Virus record (IMG/VR): IMGVR_UViG_3300035498_000319
Coordinates: 1-64,000 of that record
Length of the DNA stretch: 64,000 nucleotides
Direction: 5' to 3' (one strand)
DNA from: a virus
Taxonomy: Duplodnaviria > Caudoviricetes
A program made the position numbers and the translations under genes. Below the pieces are notes generated by a model that saw nothing but the letters and a program-made list of their open reading frames with translations, searched no databases and had not been told where the DNA came from. This document shows, piece after piece, positions 625-62,167 of the stretch; the stretch's first letter is position 1; each line of letters starts with the position of its first letter.

Positions 625-1563
625 TTACTTTCTCAGATTATCAATCAGATCCTGCATATATGCTTCATCAATCTTATATAACTGCATTGTATTTACAGTC
701 TCAATGAAAGTATACATAACCTGCATACGATCTACAATCTTAGGAATGTTGAGATTTGCTCCTTCGCAGAACTCTTCTTTCAGATTATCATGCTTCAGAA
801 CACTCTCACACATTGCGGTTACCATGGATTCAAATACACCCTTACGACGATCACGAATCTTAGCAATCGCTCTACGAGACATTTGCTGGAAGGATTCCTT
901 TACCTCTTCAGGCTCCTTCTCGTGTTCATCTACCTTAGCCTTAGTAAGAGCCAGGACTTCCATGATTTTATCATGGTCTTCTCTATTGTCATCCAAGAAT
1001 GTATTTACAGCATCAGATACTCTTTCTCTAATAGAATCCTCAATCTCTGAGGTATCCATAGAATCAAGTTGAGAATAGAAGTCATCCTGAAGATCTTGCT
1101 TAATATAGAAGGTATGCTCTTCTCCAGCAGCAGATTCAAGAATCTTCTTTCTAGTATCTGTAATGAGATTATACATCTCACAAAGAACAGGAGTCTTTCT
1201 TCTCATCTTAGCAAGAATCTCATTAGCATCTTCTGTAATAAGATCAGATACCATTGCTCTCATCATGCCGGTAACATTCGGCTGTTGAAGAAGAGATTCA
1301 TTCATAGCATTCTTGAATACATGATAAATTGTATCTCCAAGAAGAGCAGTAGTAACAGATTCTGACCAGCTAGTAATTCTAGCCTTCTTCTCAAGAGCAG
1401 CAGCCTTCATAGAATAAAGATTTTCAGCTTCTTTAAAAGCCTTCTTCTCTGCAAGCTTCTGCTGTCTCTTCTCCCGTTCAGCGATTTCAAACTGTTCGTT
1501 ATATGAGTTAATAGCTGCTTCAACTATTGCCTTAGTTGATACAGGCTTAGTCATCATAGACAT
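625..1563 (-). CDS. Late hypothetical protein, probably virion/head protein
   Basis: 312 aa, AAGGAGG RBS, late promoter at 1590-1601, many xxE-(S/A/G) putative maturation sites. Confidence 0.5.
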   Translation of the reverse strand: MSMMTKPVSTKAIVEAAINSYNEQFEIAEREKRQQKLAEKKAFKEAENLYSMKAAALEKKARITSWSESVTTALLGDTIYHVFKNAMNESLLQQPNVTGMMRAMVSDLITEDANEILAKMRRKTPVLCEMYNLITDTRKKILESAAGEEHTFYIKQDLQDDFYSQLDSMDTSEIEDSIRERVSDAVNTFLDDNREDHDKIMEVLALTKAKVDEHEKEPEEVKESFQQMSRRAIAKIRDRRKGVFESMVTAMCESVLKHDNLKEEFCEGANLNIPKIVDRMQVMYTFIETVNTMQLYKIDEAYMQDLIDNLRK

Positions 1564-1601: not shown

Positions 1602-4583
1602 TTAAACCAGCTCTATAGTGATATCTGGCAGTCCATTTATAGTATCTATATTGATAAACTCAGGAACCATAATATCATCAGGCATATCCATTGCATAGAT
1701 GTGCTGATAACTAGCTTCCTTGCCATTAATAGATACAAACTCGAAGTATACAATAGAGTCTTTATAAGTATTCGTAATCTCTGTAATGAGATTCGGAATA
1801 TGGAGAGACTCTATGCTATTGATATCTTCAACGTAATCCTTAATATCCTGCCTAATATCTTCCACAATATTAGACTCATAATTAGTTCTAAGCTTAAGCT
1901 TAAAGAAGAGAGAGATATTGACTCTATCAATAACTTCAAGCTCATTATCCCAAGTGAAGAACTTAGAAGGCCCATAAGTATTAAAGAACTTAAAGTCCAT
2001 TTCAAAAGCATCTTCAAGATAATCTATTGCTTTATCTATATAAGTCTTTCTAGTAACTAATTCATCAAAGAATGCTTTAGCAATATCTTCTGTCTCAAAG
2101 TATCCATACTTTACTACAGGTACTCCCTTAACATGATATCTCACCTTAGGAGTAAGTGCAGCAAATTCTTCAGGACTCATATTAGCAAGCTCTTCATCAG
2201 TATAGAACTTTCCTTCTGAATCCATCATATCATTTGTAGCTGTTACAACAGAGGATACTATTCCACTATAGTCATAGAAGAAGTCAAGTCCTCCAGAGAT
2301 CTCGTAAGTATTCGATAAGCTTAGTCCTTCCAGTCCAGGAATATAATCACTAAGAACAGGAGTTCCTAAGCCATATTCTAATTCTTGCTTAGATACTACA
2401 AAGAGCTTTGTCTTCATATTGGCATGCATATAAGCATAGCTCTCATAAGTAGAATTTATATCATATAATCCTGTATCTATTCTTAATCTAGTGCTGCTAT
2501 CGAAATAATCTTCAGTAGTGAACTTAAACTCAAAAGTGATATTGCCAAGACTTGCATCGCAATCTGTAAGTTCTCCCTTAGCCCATCTAAGAGGCTTATC
2601 TTCTTCATTGTATACGATCATAAGAACTGCAATATTACATATTACATTTCCTTCTGAGTCGTAATAAATAGGCTTATCCGATGTAGTTTCATCAGCAGCC
2701 GCTGTAGATGATAAAATGCTGAAAGTAGAAATGCCTTCAGAGGTTTCACTATCTTCTGAATCAGTTTCATCTTCAGTTTCATCAACAGACTTCTGCCATG
2801 TAAGAGCTTTTACTAAAGCAGCCTCAGATACAATCTTATCCTCACTCGGATTATCCATATCTATCTCTGTAGTTACATCAGAAGCTCTTACTGCTCCAGA
2901 GTCATAAACGTCATATGTCTCGTCTTCAGAAGATTCTGGTGCTACATATGCTTCAGGAGTAATATTCTGCTGTAGAGATATAGTCATGACGAACTCATTA
3001 TGATTCTCTAAGCAATTTCTATTCCAATCTATAGAAGTTGCTACATATTGATACATACAATTCTCATTGATGTAATCAAAGTCGAGCAACTTAGATGTAT
3101 GGATAGTAGACATAAAATAGATTCCATATAGAGGAGACTTATTAATGATAAAATCATATGGCAAATAATAAGTGAATCTACCATCATAATTCGTATCATC
3201 ATAATCAGGTAATGTCTCTCCATCTTTAAGGAGTCTAGCTTCATTAGAATTGGTCTCTAATACAATAGGAGTATTCTGTCTTAAGAAGTATTTATCCGAT
3301 CCTTCTTCTGTATCCAATTCTTCTGGTTCTATAACCATATCCACTGTATTAGTAGGAATAATGGTTGTATCATTCTTAAGTATAATGAATGAGTAATACA
3401 ATCTCTCTAAGCAATTATCCCTCTTCTTATAGAAGTACACTTTACTATAATCTGTATCAAGCATATTGAAATAATTATTCAAATCTGCTGTACTAGTAAT
3501 AGAACCTCTAGAGAGAGCTTCCTTAGGAATAATCTGTTTCAATTCTGCAATAGTCTTCTTATCATGTCCATAAGCAGATTCTCCAGTAAGAGGTTGGACT
3601 TCACAAGTGATATTGGAATATCCGAGTCTTTCTGAATTGAAGAAGCTTATCGGGTTATCATCTACCCAAGTAAAGTTTCCATCTGATCCTTGAGTAGTCT
3701 GGATATTTATAGCGATACTTGCATTAATTGCAGGTATCTTTGAATTTCTATCAAATTTGATTCTTATAGTATTAGCAGCCAGATAGGTATACCAGAAGTA
3801 TAGATCTCCTCCGGTGTCTACATTAAGCCCTTCATATACAGGAACCATGTGATATGTAGTAGATCCTTCTGTTACATCCAGACTGAATGCTGCTAGTTGT
3901 CCGGTAAATGTAAATGTAATAGTCTTAGAAGATACATCATTATTGGATAGAACTTTTGTATTCTGAGTATTCTTCTCTACTTGTCTAATCGTACACTTTA
4001 CCAATAGAGTATCAATACCATTCATACTAATCTTTACTGGTGAAGTAAGATAAGGGTTCGTAGTAGTACTCACTGGATTAGTGATATTGAAATCACTAGA
4101 CTCATATTGAGCTGTATAAGTAAACTTCTTATCTACTCCTTGGGTAGTGACTTCTACCTTCTTAATAAGAATATCGTAGTCTACATGGAATTCAAAGTTT
4201 CCGAAATAGATAGGATTATCCTTATCGAAAGTAAAACTCCAAGGTTGATCTGTCTTTACATTTCCTACAGAATTGATGATATCAGACTCTACGAATGTAA
4301 GAATTACATCCATCTGTGCAGGAACTGCATTGATATCTGTAAGACCTAATCCTAGAGCATGAGCTATAATATTCTTTTCAAATTTGGCTTTAGTAGGAAT
4401 ACTCTCATTAGAGAATTCTGAAGCCATAACTATACCATTCTGAATTAGGTCAGAAAACATCTGGCCGAAATATCCGAAGATACCAAGCATAAGAGTATCT
4501 TCATTCTCACTTACATACTGCTTCTTAACTTCATTTACAAAGTCATTTATACTATAGATATCTGAAGTAAGATTGTCTGCCAT
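1602..4583 (-). CDS. Baseplate wedge protein (T4 gp6/BW2-like), with acidic low-complexity insert
   Basis: 993 aa; TTQGSDGNF followed by ...ELKQ...ALSRGSITSTADL resembles the baseplate J/gp6 pattern; late operon. Confidence 0.6.
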   Translation of the reverse strand: MADNLTSDIYSINDFVNEVKKQYVSENEDTLMLGIFGYFGQMFSDLIQNGIVMASEFSNESIPTKAKFEKNIIAHALGLGLTDINAVPAQMDVILTFVESDIINSVGNVKTDQPWSFTFDKDNPIYFGNFEFHVDYDILIKKVEVTTQGVDKKFTYTAQYESSDFNITNPVSTTTNPYLTSPVKISMNGIDTLLVKCTIRQVEKNTQNTKVLSNNDVSSKTITFTFTGQLAAFSLDVTEGSTTYHMVPVYEGLNVDTGGDLYFWYTYLAANTIRIKFDRNSKIPAINASIAINIQTTQGSDGNFTWVDDNPISFFNSERLGYSNITCEVQPLTGESAYGHDKKTIAELKQIIPKEALSRGSITSTADLNNYFNMLDTDYSKVYFYKKRDNCLERLYYSFIILKNDTTIIPTNTVDMVIEPEELDTEEGSDKYFLRQNTPIVLETNSNEARLLKDGETLPDYDDTNYDGRFTYYLPYDFIINKSPLYGIYFMSTIHTSKLLDFDYINENCMYQYVATSIDWNRNCLENHNEFVMTISLQQNITPEAYVAPESSEDETYDVYDSGAVRASDVTTEIDMDNPSEDKIVSEAALVKALTWQKSVDETEDETDSEDSETSEGISTFSILSSTAAADETTSDKPIYYDSEGNVICNIAVLMIVYNEEDKPLRWAKGELTDCDASLGNITFEFKFTTEDYFDSSTRLRIDTGLYDINSTYESYAYMHANMKTKLFVVSKQELEYGLGTPVLSDYIPGLEGLSLSNTYEISGGLDFFYDYSGIVSSVVTATNDMMDSEGKFYTDEELANMSPEEFAALTPKVRYHVKGVPVVKYGYFETEDIAKAFFDELVTRKTYIDKAIDYLEDAFEMDFKFFNTYGPSKFFTWDNELEVIDRVNISLFFKLKLRTNYESNIVEDIRQDIKDYVEDINSIESLHIPNLITEITNTYKDSIVYFEFVSINGKEASYQHIYAMDMPDDIMVPEFINIDTINGLPDITIELV

Positions 4584-30566: not shown

Positions 30567-30640
30567 TGGAGCAGGTAATCAGGATCGAACTGACAACCTC
30601 ACCTTGGAAGGGTGATGTGTTACCATTACACTATACCTGC
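30567..30640 (-). tRNA. tRNA-Gly(UCC) with encoded CCA
   Basis: GCAGGTA/TACCTGC acceptor, anticodon loop CTTCCAA, GTTCGATCC T-loop; AACT-N6-TA promoter 30647-30658. Confidence 0.95.
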
Positions 30641-31572: not shown

Positions 31573-33964
31573 ATGAAAGAAGAAAAACGAGAACTGATAG
31601 ACCCTTTAGAGTTTTACGAACATGAAGAGTTTATACCAGTGGACGAGTGGACTCCTACCAAGGAGGAAATGATATTCACAACTACGAAAGGTGCTATTAT
31701 AGCTGATGTCTCTGGCTACTTTGGAGACAGTCATCAAAGCGCTAGTAATACCTTTGTAATGAGTCCAAAGCGGTCTTATAATTCCGTAGCTATGCGAGAG
31801 CATATCACTTTATATCTGAATTACTTTGAGAGATTCTATGATAGAGATCATCAGCTTTTCTCAACCTATTGCAGAATAAAGTATATGATCGATCATGAGG
31901 AAGGATATACGAAGAGTATGTTCTTCTTTGATCTAATGAAGTATATCATACGTGGTCCGATAGAGATGAAGACCATGAATATGAATGCTGCTAATTATTG
32001 CCTTAGCTTGAATTATAAGTCCCGTACTAGTTCTTCTCTTCAGTATAATGATGAACATGCTATGCTGATGATGAAGATCTCGGTACAAATAAATCAAATC
32101 ATTCCTCTTCTATGTCATTTCATGTATTCCAGAAAAATACAGAATACGTCTGACTTTTTGTTTGAAATATATGATAAGGTCATAGATGGGTATGATATAG
32201 ATATCTATTCTAAATTGTATGAGACAGCGTATTCCAATGTAATAAGATCCGTCAAGCAGAATCCTATTATATGGGGTAAGCAATCTATTAGAGGTAATGA
32301 CCCTATAACTCATGCAATGCAGTCAGTTCAGAATATCCTGATAAATATTATATGCAAATATGTGTATAATGGGAATTTAATACACCTTGAATTCAGGGCA
32401 GCATAATAGCAATATTATGACTGAATTCTCCTTAATTGCTGGGAACTCTCTGAGGAGACAATCAGCAGCTAAGCAATATTATATAAAGAAAGGAAGTGAT
32501 ATTGAAAGTTCAACGACTATCGAAAGGATATCTTAGAAGAAATATCTAAGAGAATAACCGAGTAGAGTAGGATAATAAATCCGAAATGGGAGACATCCCT
32601 AGTATGGTAAAAGTATTAGGGATGAAGATATAGTCTAGTCTCCATAGCGATATGGGGTAGTTACGAAATTATAATTCCGTTATCAGGAACACCGGATATC
32701 AAATCACCAATATCGAATACGAATATGCTTTTGTTGCTCTTAGTAGTAGCAAGAGAGACGAGGATTAAGTTACTACGAATATAACACTAATTTATTCGAG
32801 TAGATTCAGTCCCCTTGATATGGAAACATAACAAGGAAAAACCATTTGAATTGCTGGGAAGCCGTAAAGCCTTTATGCCACAACGGAGCGATTTTTATGC
32901 ATACGTGAAGGAGATGAAAATCTGAAAGAAGTTAAAGGATGCTATATGGGGAAACTCTAAGTAGTAATCAGTAATCGGTAATCAGCAGCTAAGCACAGTG
33001 CTGTGCGAATCGGAAGTTGAATATATTGGATATCTTTAGGACCAGATAGGTGCAAGACCTATATCCAATACCATAATGATTTTAAAATGTAAGCAAAAGA
33101 TCCTTATGTAAGTTATAAACCTAATAGACCGGTATAATTACCGGAGGAAGGAGCAAGCGCGCACAAGCACAGACGAAAGTTCAACGACTATCGAAATCTT
33201 ATTGTATCGCTCACTGAGTTAAAGATATAGTAAAGAGAGTAGAGTAGGGTAGTTCAATACTGTAGAGCTATCCGAAGTGGATGGGGCCCTAACGGAGAAT
33301 GCCGAGGGTTATGATATAGTCTATTGTCTGTAGAAATACAGAATGTAAAAAGATGAATTCTGAATTCGATAAATTTGAGTCTTATATTACTAAAGCAGAT
33401 GCTGCTCTAGCAATGCAGAATCAAATAGGTGCTGATGAAGCAATGAAACTAATCAGACAAAGATTTGGACCCTTCGATCCAGAAGAGATAAGATTCTTTA
33501 AGAGAAGACTCTCTGATGAGACTGGAAGGGTTAAGATTAATAGTCTACAGAAGATGCTTGTATTCAATCTATTCTATAAGTATTTTCTGGATACGCAGGC
33601 TGTTAATTGTATCAATCTGGATGATTATATCACTCTTATACTTGCGGCTAGAAAGATTCTAGAAGAGAATGGCATGTATCTACTTGCTGCTATAACCTCT
33701 TCTAAAGTTGTAAGAATGGCTACAAGAAAGAATGTGAATAAGAAAGAACTAACTAAACTAGAAGGCAGTGAAGTCTATACTTCTATTAGAGAGAAGTATA
33801 GAAATGATAAAATAGAAAAACAAATTCTAGGAATCATTGCGGCTGTCTTAAGTTCCGACTTCGAGTATATCAATTTCCATGATAAAGAAATCGATGGAAG
33901 AAGTATAAATGTCACGGCTGAAATTGCTTCAGAGGAAATTCTTATGTATGTGAATATGATATGA
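31573..33964 (+). CDS. Sigma-like promoter-specificity subunit of non-virion RNAP (AR9 gp226/phiKZ gp68-like); exons 31573-32387, 32666-32765, 33353-33964; 508 aa
   Basis: Spliced frame continuous (LIHL/NYNSV...KRDED/MNSEFDKFE); KRSY, IIPLLCHF, SKLY, IIW, INSLQ, SEEIL match my recollection of gp226; early promoter 31532-31541. Confidence 0.75.
32388..32665 (+). ncRNA. Group I intron 1 (ORF-less, 278 nt)
   Basis: AATTGCTGGGAA (P), AATCAGCAG (Q), GTTCAACGACTA (R), GATATAGTCT (S); P1 U32387-G32396; terminal G. Confidence 0.9.
32766..33352 (+). ncRNA. Group I intron 2 (ORF-less, 587 nt, large P5 and P6 extensions)
   Basis: Same P/Q/R/S elements; P1 GGAT|T with AGTCC; P10 GATTCA with exon TGAATT; terminal G33352. 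Confidence 0.9.
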
Positions 33965-59287: not shown

Positions 59288-62167
59288 ATGAAGAAAAATA
59301 ACGCTAGTACAAATGGTAGCAATGACCTCTCTAAATACGAAGAAAGTATTAAGAGCTATGGAAGCAAGATTAAGAAGCTTGAATTCGTAGAAGCAGTTAG
59401 AAGTCTACCAGGAATGTATATAGGCGAGATTGGTAATAATGGATGGAAGTCATGTATTAGAGAGATCGCTCAGAATGCTTTTGATGAAGCTGTAAGAGAA
59501 GATTCTCCATGTAATTATGTCGCTATCCATTTTAGTGAACAAGATCAATCTGCTATAGTATTTGATACTGGTAGAGGAGTTCCGCATGGAAAGATGAAAG
59601 AGATATACTCGGAAGCTCACTCTAGTTCTCATTATGAGAATACAGAGGGGAGTGATTATTCATCCGGCGTCCATGGAGTAGGCGCTGGTGTTGCTATGAG
59701 TCTATCTCAAGATTTTATAGCTACTTCTTATGTACTCGGAGAAGCTCATGAGATAGTATTCCATGAAGGAAAACTTATTAAAGATGAACATAAGATTCCT
59801 TACTCGTCTATTACTCCAAAAGATAGACAAGGAACCACTGTTCAAATGAAACCGGATTTAAGTATCATGGGTCCGGTTAATCTCACTTGTAATGAGATCT
59901 ATTCCATGATAGCAAATATAGTTCCACTCTTACCGATAGGTACTACAGTGGACTTTAAAGGAGAAGATGCCTCTGGCAGATTAGCAATAGATGAAAGAAT
60001 TGTTAATACAGATGGCATCATGTCCTTCTTACAAAGAAGAGTTCGGACTCCATTGATACTTCCTGTCACATTTTCTTGTGATACGAAGATCATGAAAGCC
60101 GAAGCCGCTTTCACTTATGACTCTACCGACTTAACGTCTGCGGAAGATATTATATCTTTCGCTAATTTCACACAGACAACCGGTGGTGGTACTCATGTGT
60201 CTGGTTTCTTAGATGGTCTTTGCACCTATCTGAGAAATTACATGAATAAGATATATCTTAGTGAGAAATCTAAGTTATCTATCACCAGCAATGATATTAA
60301 GACTGGTCTTAAATGTGTGATTAATGTAGACCATATCAACCCGATATTCATGGGTCAGTTCAAAGGAATCTTATCCAATAAAGATATGGAATCCTTTGTA
60401 AAGAAACTGACTATGGATTCATTAGATCAATGGTCTAAGACGAGTCCTGGGGAATTACAGAAGTTATGTAAATTCCTCAAGGAGGTCGGAGAGATCCGAA
60501 TGAAAAGCGAGGGAGAGAAGATAAAGCTCTCCGATAAATATACTTCTAGTAAGATTACTGGAAAACCTAAAGACTATGTACAGCCTTCTGGAAATAAAGG
60601 TCTAGAGTTATTCATAGTCGAAGGTAAATCAGCTAAGGGACCAGCGACATCTGGACGAGATGTTGAACGGCAAGGTGTATTTCCCATTAGAGGAAAATTA
60701 CCGAATGCTTTTAAAGAAAGCAGAGCTAAGTTCTTATCCAATCCTGAAGTTGCTGCAATCATTAGCTTAATCGGCGGAGGATACGGAAGAGATTTTGATA
60801 TCTCTAAAGTGAAATGGGATAAAGTAATATCCTTTGCTGATGCCGATGCGGATAAACCATGGGAGCTGTCCGCCTTATCAGAAATGGTAAGATAATAAAC
60901 TTCTCTAATTGCTGGGAACTCTCTGAGGAGACAATCAGCAGCTAAGCAATATTATATAAAGAAAGGAAGTGATATTGAAAGTTCAACGACTATCGAAAGG
61001 GTAATCAGATGAAAAACTCTGATGAGTAACTAAGTAGAGTAGGATAATAAATCCGAAACGGGAAGCGTCTTACAGGTTAAGCTGAAGATGATGATATAGT
61101 CTATTCCTTATAGCGATATAAGGTATGTAAAAGAATCGAGTAAAGGTTCCCATATTGATTCTTTATTGCTTAGATTCATTCTGATGTATATGCCAGGATT
61201 GATCGAAGCAGGGAAATTCTATAGAGCTGTTCCACCTCTCTATGGAATTAAAGTAGGAAAAACGCAGAAGTATTTCACTTCTACGATTGATTTCACTAAG
61301 TATATTCAGGGTATATTTATGAATAGATTTACTCTGACTGATATTAAGGATAAGAATATTACTAGAGCGCAAGCTACAGGAATCTTCTATAGAAATAGAA
61401 ATTATGTAAGAGATATAGAAATTATCTCTAGTACCTATGCTATAGATCCAGACTTGTTAGAAAGTGTGCTTTATGAGTTAGCTCCATATATAGTTTTAGG
61501 CTCTCGTGAGCTTATCTGTAATATGGCAGCTAGGGCTAAAGCTATGCCCAAAAAGAAGGCTTCTTCTAAGAAGGATAAAGAGACTATTAAGAAAGCTAAG
61601 GGGAATAAGAATATAGCTGTAAATGAAGATGAATTAGATGAGGAAGAAACCTTACTTCCGATTACAGATAATTCAGTACTTCAGCAAGCCGAGTTCTATA
61701 TTAGTCCTGAATTTAGCTTTAGAAAGATGTCTAAGAATCTTAAGAAGAAGTATAGATTCCTTGAGCTAGAAAAGGTAAATGATACTATCTTGCTTAAGGG
61801 TCTAGTAAACTCTAGATATCAATATGTCTTCTTAAATGATAAATTCATTAATAGCTGTGTCGAGCTCTTAAATATTATTAAGAGTAATGACGAGTATTAT
61901 AAGATTGATGGAAATGCAGTGACTATATATGGTCTTATGAAGGCATTTGAAGCCATGCAACCGAGCGGTATTACAAGATATAAAGGTCTAGGTGAACAGA
62001 ATCCGGACCAGCTTGGAGAATCTGCTATGAGGCCAGATGGCTATAGAACTCTTATCCGGTATACAATCGAATCTGCTAAAGAAGAGATTGAGAGTATTAG
62101 AGAAGTAGAGTCTAATATGTATTCTCTACTGAGGGAGCTCAAGGTGGACCGGAGCGAAGTAGAGTAA
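59288..62167 (+). CDS. gyrB: Type IIA topoisomerase B subunit (GyrB-like); exons 59288-60853 and 61145-62167; 862 aa
   Basis: EAVR..PGMYIG, QNAFDE, DTGRGVP, GVHGVG, GGTH, VEGKSA, PIRGK, DADAD/GSHI, PPLY, RYKGLGEQN. Confidence 0.9.
60854..61144 (+). ncRNA. Group I intron 3 in gyrB (ORF-less, 291 nt)
   Basis: P1 GCGGAT with GTCCGC; P10 ATGGGAGCT with exon GGTTCCCAT; P/Q/R/S motifs present. Confidence 0.9.

Follow-up and report, generated by a model that had tools for sequence, protein, structure and literature searches.

An anticodon-less tRNA-like module conserved in the L6 loop of a phage group I intron, a candidate substrate of RNase P

Endonuclease genes are the standard cargo of the loops of phage group I introns (PMC11878797), and the locus analyzed here raises the question of what a non-coding, tRNA-shaped element of 49 nt could be doing in such a loop. 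The window, by which we mean the whole 64,000-nt stretch of DNA under analysis, covers positions 1 to 64,000 of the IMG/VR record IMGVR_UViG_3300035498_000319 (Duplodnaviria; Caudoviricetes), a viral record of 93 kb that is 38% complete. A profile built from the gene hosting the element and from its intronless relatives matched chain A of PDB 7S01 (E 1.1e-18), and the gene also matches phrog_25005 and g245 of phiR1-37. We take 7S01 chain A to be gp226 of AR9, the subunit that gives the non-virion RNA polymerase its promoter specificity, and judged by this profile comparison the host gene is a homologue of that subunit (AR9-gp226-like). The gene and its two introns are laid out as follows:

31573-32387, 32666-32765 and 33353-33964, plus strand: host gene in three exons, with a product of 508 aa
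32388-32665, plus strand: group I intron 1 of the host gene (Rfam, 87.6 bits), with a short L6 and no cargo
32766-33352, plus strand: group I intron 2 of the host gene, 587 nt, without an ORF and with P5abc and P7 extensions

The boundaries of intron 1 were set by the reading frame in comparison with intronless homologues. Intron 2 matches Rfam RF00028 (47.6 bits, E 5.8e-11) and contains the group I core P3-P7, its P1 carries U32765.G32809, its last base is G33352 and the flanking exons join in frame, the protein across this join reading DEDMNSEF in close intronless relatives. The P9.0 pairing is UU/AA in the window and GC/GC or CU/AG in the orthologues, both strands changing in step. One metatranscriptome contig (run X3, depth 3.6) joins 32765 to 33354 without the intervening 588 nt, one base past the in-frame site, which represents either mis-splicing or an assembly error; a 3' site after A33353 fits a 5-bp P10 pairing between 32804-32808 and 33354-33358. 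Coverage gaps and depth of the RNA contigs were not counted as evidence.

Several other observations concern the surroundings of this intron. Intron 2 has an extra L1 hairpin in the window (32777-32803) that is absent from the orthologues. A third group I intron lies at 60844-61123 of the window; its P4-P6 region is nearly identical to that of intron 1, and in both the L6 measures 34 nt and contains remnants resembling a promoter and a Shine-Dalgarno sequence. The host gene is an intron hot spot with several insertion sites (L001-L021, L206, L227-L229) and many long L6 ORFs, AT-rich L6 remnants occur in some of its introns (L010), and in L178 an IS605 OrfB (TnpB-type) ORF at 210-1181 is located just upstream, apparently inside the host gene region. 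The sole tRNA called in the 93-kb record is a tRNA-Gly(UCC) with encoded CCA (window 30567-30640, minus strand).

Between the P4/P6 and P7 signatures of intron 2 lies an insert in which the initial annotation, made from the sequence of the window, had recognized an acceptor-like stem, a linker, a T arm, a terminal ACCA and a closing helix. All of these elements were found where it had placed them, and we describe them as the following features:

33025-33073, plus strand: anticodon-less tRNA-like module, 49 nt, a tRNA top half in L6 of intron 2
33021-33024, plus strand: proximal leader of the module, A-4 U-3 A-2 U-1
33025-33031/33063-33069, plus strand: acceptor stem of the module, 7 bp
33032-33045, plus strand: linker of the module, 14 nt, with AG..GAC
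33046-33050/33058-33062, plus strand: T stem of the module, 5 bp
33051-33057, plus strand: T loop of the module, 7 nt, G55-type
33070-33073, plus strand: ACCA of the module (discriminator A and CCA)
33074-33159, plus strand: variable L6 trailer, mean identity 0.66, window versus others 0.57
32998-33007/33160-33170, plus strand: P6 extension helix closing the L6 cassette, its pairing conserved in 12 orthologues

The insert folded better than each of 200 shuffled versions (200/200, z -3.48), in line with the proposed structured insert in P6/L6 of an RF00028 intron. The geometry of the module together with CCA was matched once in the 93-kb genome and not at all in 6 Mb of random sequence with the same composition. 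For the window copy, ViennaRNA favors a longer acceptor hairpin that lacks the T arm (-13.2 versus -10.6 kcal/mol), and the T arm of the orthologues mostly belongs to the minimum-energy fold or to one close to it; since the minimum-energy fold of the window copy contains no T arm, the assignment of this arm is based on covariation and on the orthologues. The anticodon arm is absent, the linker measuring only 14-16 nt among the copies, and neither a tRNA nor a tmRNA is called at the module by ARAGORN. Rfam at E 10 returned only RF00028 and one chance match outside the insert, with no tRNA, Y RNA or raiA among its matches. All linkers contain AG, and AG and GAC are conserved in an ambiguous register; a D arm of 2-3 bp is possible in some copies only, and an A19-U56 compensation seen in L146 was not counted given this ambiguity and a G in L148. 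The GAC of the linker is similar to that in the D arm of tRNA-Leu, which was present in 9/15 Leu tRNAs and was rare in others. Among ordinary phage tRNAs (n=122), the D-loop GG was missing in 19/25 of those with G55 against 3/97 of the remainder (p 3e-14), and because tRNAs with G55 are thus mostly without this GG, the odd T loop of the module can be regarded as a natural elbow variant. The annotation had also noted that the linker TTAGG could pair with a downstream CCTAA and that a CCGGTA/TACCGG hairpin followed; both are present in the window, but the first is not conserved in the orthologues and the second is unique to the window copy. A conserved pseudoknot or switch between the linker or T stem and the trailer is not supported, as complementarity occurs in many of the copies but matched pairs were no better than swapped ones (p 0.15-0.69).

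Homologous loci gave the principal evidence that this structure has been maintained. About 40 database proteins start exactly at exon 3, and the module was present in all 11 orthologous intron lineages examined, i.e., at every exon-3-group locus retrieved, the module-bearing introns forming a clade with support of 95/99 in the tree of intron cores. Among the 13 distinct copies, the 12 acceptor/T pairs were formed in 99.4% of the cells, with two-sided changes in 6/12 pairs and with variation in pairs 2, 3 and 5 of the acceptor; slid registers paired in 24-41%, and 0/500 shuffles reached the pairing of the module, although this shuffle ignores kinship and several of the pair changes are single events. 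The ACCA is invariant in all L6 copies, including the discriminator A73. In the window it was retained despite a change of UUGG to UAGG in the T stem, and pairing with this stem therefore cannot be the only reason for its retention. The mean identity of the module was 0.83 against 0.66 for the flanking L6, and the leader, trailer, L1 and the P5 and P7 extensions were in the range of 0.65-0.68; the catalytic 3' part of the intron reached 0.81 and four-fold sites of exon 3 only 0.47. Thus, in the homologue comparison that the annotation had set in advance as its own test, both the CCA and the 12-bp acceptor/T geometry proved conserved, with compensatory changes. The structure of the module is shown by covariation, its conservation and position are likewise established, and these comparisons point to a real, selected feature. 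One lineage carries a second mini copy in P5abc (L186:1184-1233, minus strand; also L187 and L192), which ends in AUCA.

The same comparison bears on a different origin for the insert, in which it would be what remains of a group II intron inserted into the group I intron, as the annotation had alternatively proposed, or a short ORF left over from an endonuclease gene. The window copy does contain GTGCG and a purine-rich motif, and an ATG overlaps +1 in 9/12 orthologues. Neither motif is conserved, however: GTGCG forms the 5' strand of the P6 extension helix, every orthologue having GTGCA or GTGCC in its place, and GGAGGAAGG occurs in the window copy only. The insert has no domain V, and no Rfam group II model matched it even at E 10, which leaves the group II relic, and the strong group II domain match that the annotation had thought might explain the hairpin, without a counterpart in these searches. 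The ATG is missing in three lineages, the window among them, and 1-2-nt indels in the linker put the frame out of register. The alignment refutes the group II relic, we regard either form of this origin as very improbable, and peptide coding was rejected because the short frame from -2 is not kept.

The L6 loops of related introns provide a context for the module. As the annotation had supposed, the element occupies the slot where an endonuclease ORF usually sits, given that related introns have ORF-type inserts of 0.7-1.1 kb at this place; other related introns have an L6 of 18-34 nt. In introns inserted elsewhere in this polymerase-subunit gene, at two sites, the slot holds whole tRNA genes:

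L206/L207:3073-3159; L227:10716-10800; L228:10201-10288; L229:3291-3378 (minus strand): complete tRNA-Leu genes in L6 (UAG, UAG, UAA)

L227 and L228/L229 are all three matches of a wide pattern scan. The trailer behind the tRNA-Leu of L227 is homologous to the trailer of the mini-module in several lineages (z up to 13.4, L182), its homology to the diverged trailer of the window being undetectable (z 0.1), and in the intron tree the mini lineages group with those carrying tRNA-Leu, with weak support (84/89). A derivation of the module as a cut-down version of an L6 tRNA-Leu is not supported by sequence, since the top-half identity of 0.50-0.52 is near background, though slot and trailer are shared.

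Outside the intron, tRNA-shaped inserts were found in the anticodon loops of phage tRNAs, and in silico deletion of these inserts gives back normal tRNAs:

L232:1241-1290, minus strand: 50-nt tRNA-shaped insert in the anticodon loop of tRNA-Gln, ending in ACCA
L245:652-700: 49-nt tRNA-shaped insert in the anticodon loop of tRNA-Asn, ending in ACCA
L163:about 3861-3945: 85-nt tRNA-shaped insert in the anticodon loop of tRNA-Gln, ending in ACCA
L236:about 1910-1973, minus strand: 64-nt tRNA-shaped insert in the anticodon loop of tRNA-Ile, ending in ACCA

Model R1, which by construction scores the module at 85 bits, matches the L232 and L245 inserts at 37 bits. Their top halves are 0.74 (tRNA-Gln insert) and 0.79 (tRNA-Asn insert) identical to the module, compared with 0.45 +/- 0.09 for ordinary tRNAs, so that by sequence these 49-50-nt inserts, located in other phage-like contigs, are its closest look-alikes. 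The search pattern behind L232 fixed only the T loop, closing pairs and ACCA, and its remaining likeness is therefore independent; that of L245, found with a stricter pattern, is partly selected. Top halves of phage tRNA-Met(CAU) reach an identity of 0.74 as well, a likeness partly selected because the pattern that retrieved them had been derived from the module, and phage tRNA-Met(CAU) is a possible ancestor. The flanks of the module are intron L6, with no split tRNA around it. Other searches were less productive: apart from the split tRNA of L163, model R1 detected no further copy in 9 related viral records or in the own genome, comparison of the intron with cultured phages by BLAST gave short core matches only, a loose T-loop pattern gave mostly chance matches and an exact P6 pattern none, and a first tRNA scan upstream of the P7 signature yielded chance matches only. 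The L232 genome encodes a T4-type RNA ligase; none was found in three related genomes or in the own genome, which is 38% complete and whose search control gave no signal. A tRNA array of L161 (about 1290-1385, minus strand) possibly includes a permuted tRNA gene, in which the T arm, the 3' strand of the acceptor and ACCA precede a matching acceptor 5' strand and a D-arm-like stretch. Free-standing acceptor/T-arm shapes without CCA were seen at L100:5001 (plus strand), L109:2132 (plus strand) and L138 (minus strand, near the locus end); these have a G55-type loop and an AGG linker, are in unrelated viral contigs and have no Rfam match.

The likeness to the anticodon-loop inserts is what would be expected if the module were a selfish or neutral hitch-hiker, either a mobile tRNA-shaped insert or a decaying tRNA, residing in a safe loop without benefit to the phage, and the second copy in P5abc indicates movement or duplication. 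A neutral insert should decay, as clearance of L6 is not required for splicing, and the module instead equals the catalytic 3' part of the intron in conservation and lies far above synonymous sites. As an account of why the module persists, hitch-hiking is therefore unlikely in our view, and it may nonetheless be right about where the module came from.

Since L6 need not be emptied for splicing, the conservation implies selection on a cut or on its product, and RNase P was the best-fitting among the roles that the annotation had suggested for a tRNA mimic. A 12-bp stem, T loop, RCCA and U-1 are substrate determinants of this enzyme (PMC10731613), and the leader optimum of the holoenzyme includes A-2/U-3 (PMC5602109). 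The L6 copies have the 12-bp acceptor/T stack, the T loop and RCCA, the P5abc copy departing from RCCA. Upstream of the module, A-4, U-3 and A-2 occur in 13/13 copies and U-1 in 11/13, and the leader, with U-1/A-2/U-3 unpaired with the CCA, fits the published preferences of bacterial RNase P. In a set of 170 ordinary phage tRNA genes, ATAT is also the commonest leader. Charging is impossible at an internal ACCA, which would be sensible if it were paired by RNase P RNA or became a 3' end. Excision is further suggested by the whole tRNAs in L6, which must be cut out to function, and by the anticodon inserts, which must leave for their tRNAs to work. A decoy for anticodon nuclease, also suggested initially, is unlikely for a module that has no anticodon.

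The bases around +1 allow another route to the same 5' end, in which a mini-tRNA would be transcribed from its own phage late promoter with the first module base as +1, making RNase P dispensable there. Late promoters of phiKZ are TATG, with G as the start (PMC5312081), and the junction of leader and +1 reads TAT|G in 8/13 copies and TAT|A in 3. The remaining two copies read TAG|G, however, the AR9 late motif AACA-N6-TA/G and the AT-rich early motif are absent from the leaders, and a leader of this type is typical of ordinary tRNA precursors. We assign a low probability to such a promoter.

The module could also act within the ribozyme and never be cut out, as a structural or protein-binding domain whose T loop or elbow either docks within the intron or attracts a tRNA-binding protein, for example a synthetase. 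Synthetases assist the splicing of some mitochondrial group I introns. The presence of the module in every intron at this site would agree with such a role, as would the facts that the whole tRNAs in L6 are all Leu and that the linker shares its GAC with the D arm of tRNA-Leu. A ribozyme domain would leave the invariant internal ACCA and the RNase P-type leader unexplained, and it fits poorly with related introns that have very short L6 loops or long ORFs instead, with the additional copy in P5abc and with look-alikes in tRNA anticodons, which makes it rather unlikely.

We prefer processing by RNase P as the explanation. Host RNase P would read the 12-bp acceptor/T stack, T loop, internal ACCA and AU leader and would cut at 33024/33025, after which ordinary 3' tRNA trimming would halt at the CCA (33073) and leave a 49-nt mini-tRNA. 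The cut would most likely fall on the excised intron, and in a precursor it need not block splicing, because the two sides of the ribozyme would stay joined through the P6 extension helix. This sequence of events, with the cut probably in the excised intron and a cut precursor kept splicing-competent by the P6 extension, is in our judgment the probable one. One RNA contig crosses the module uncut (32983-33134), contigs being unable to show RNA ends. L6 would then be an expression slot for small RNAs, as is needed for the whole tRNA-Leu genes of the sister introns, and selection could be acting on the released RNA itself, which, with its CCA end, would be a decoy or ligand of factors recognizing the elbow or the acceptor end. 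That the product is selected, in preference to the cut serving as a mere decay signal, is favored here as speculation.

Endonuclease-bearing phage introns such as T4 td, AR9 and those of Bastillevirinae belong to the same ribozyme class and use the same cargo loop, whereas the cargo here is a non-coding 49-nt tRNA mimic, or elsewhere a whole tRNA-Leu, with no ORF. The hexacoral mitochondrial ND5-717 intron likewise has a tRNA gene in a group I loop, but its P8 holds most of the mitochondrial genome and it back-splices (PMC6545197), compared with a small L6 cassette here. 'Enigmatic' tRNA introns are described from Lak megaphages, including one that possibly encodes a tRNA of its own (Devoto et al. 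2019, PMC6784885). These are likewise tRNA-shaped, CCA-ended inserts; our module differs in sitting in a ribozyme loop rather than in a tRNA, so that religation is unnecessary. With the tRNA-like domain of tmRNA, 4.5S RNA and the phage C4 and M3 RNAs (PMC10731613) it shares the 12-bp stem, T loop, RCCA, U-1 and lack of an anticodon arm, and it differs in being intron-nested and only 49 nt long, with no mRNA-like domain and no antisense role seen. Relative to canonical tRNA (RF00005), the 7-bp acceptor, the 5-bp/7-nt T arm and NCCA are shared and the anticodon arm is missing, and phage tRNA-Met(CAU) has the same G55-type T loop but keeps its D and anticodon arms. In the literature searched, mostly open-access papers, we found no publication describing a tRNA or a tRNA mimic as the cargo of a phage group I intron.

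As a tentative proposal, possible but well short of probable, intron loops in AR9-like gut jumbo phages may serve as expression slots for tRNA-type RNAs, the 49-nt module being a mobile, selected RNA shared with the anticodon-loop inserts and released by RNase P as a CCA-ended decoy against host factors or defences by which tRNA acceptor ends are attacked or sensed. The module inverts the familiar arrangement of an intron inside a tRNA and extends the cargo of phage group I introns by a kind not encountered in the literature searched. The 49-50-nt shape common to both would link these introns with the unexplained tRNA-shaped inserts of phage tRNAs and, if the proposal is true, an intron without an ORF carries something useful to the phage, which bears on the retention of introns in essential genes.
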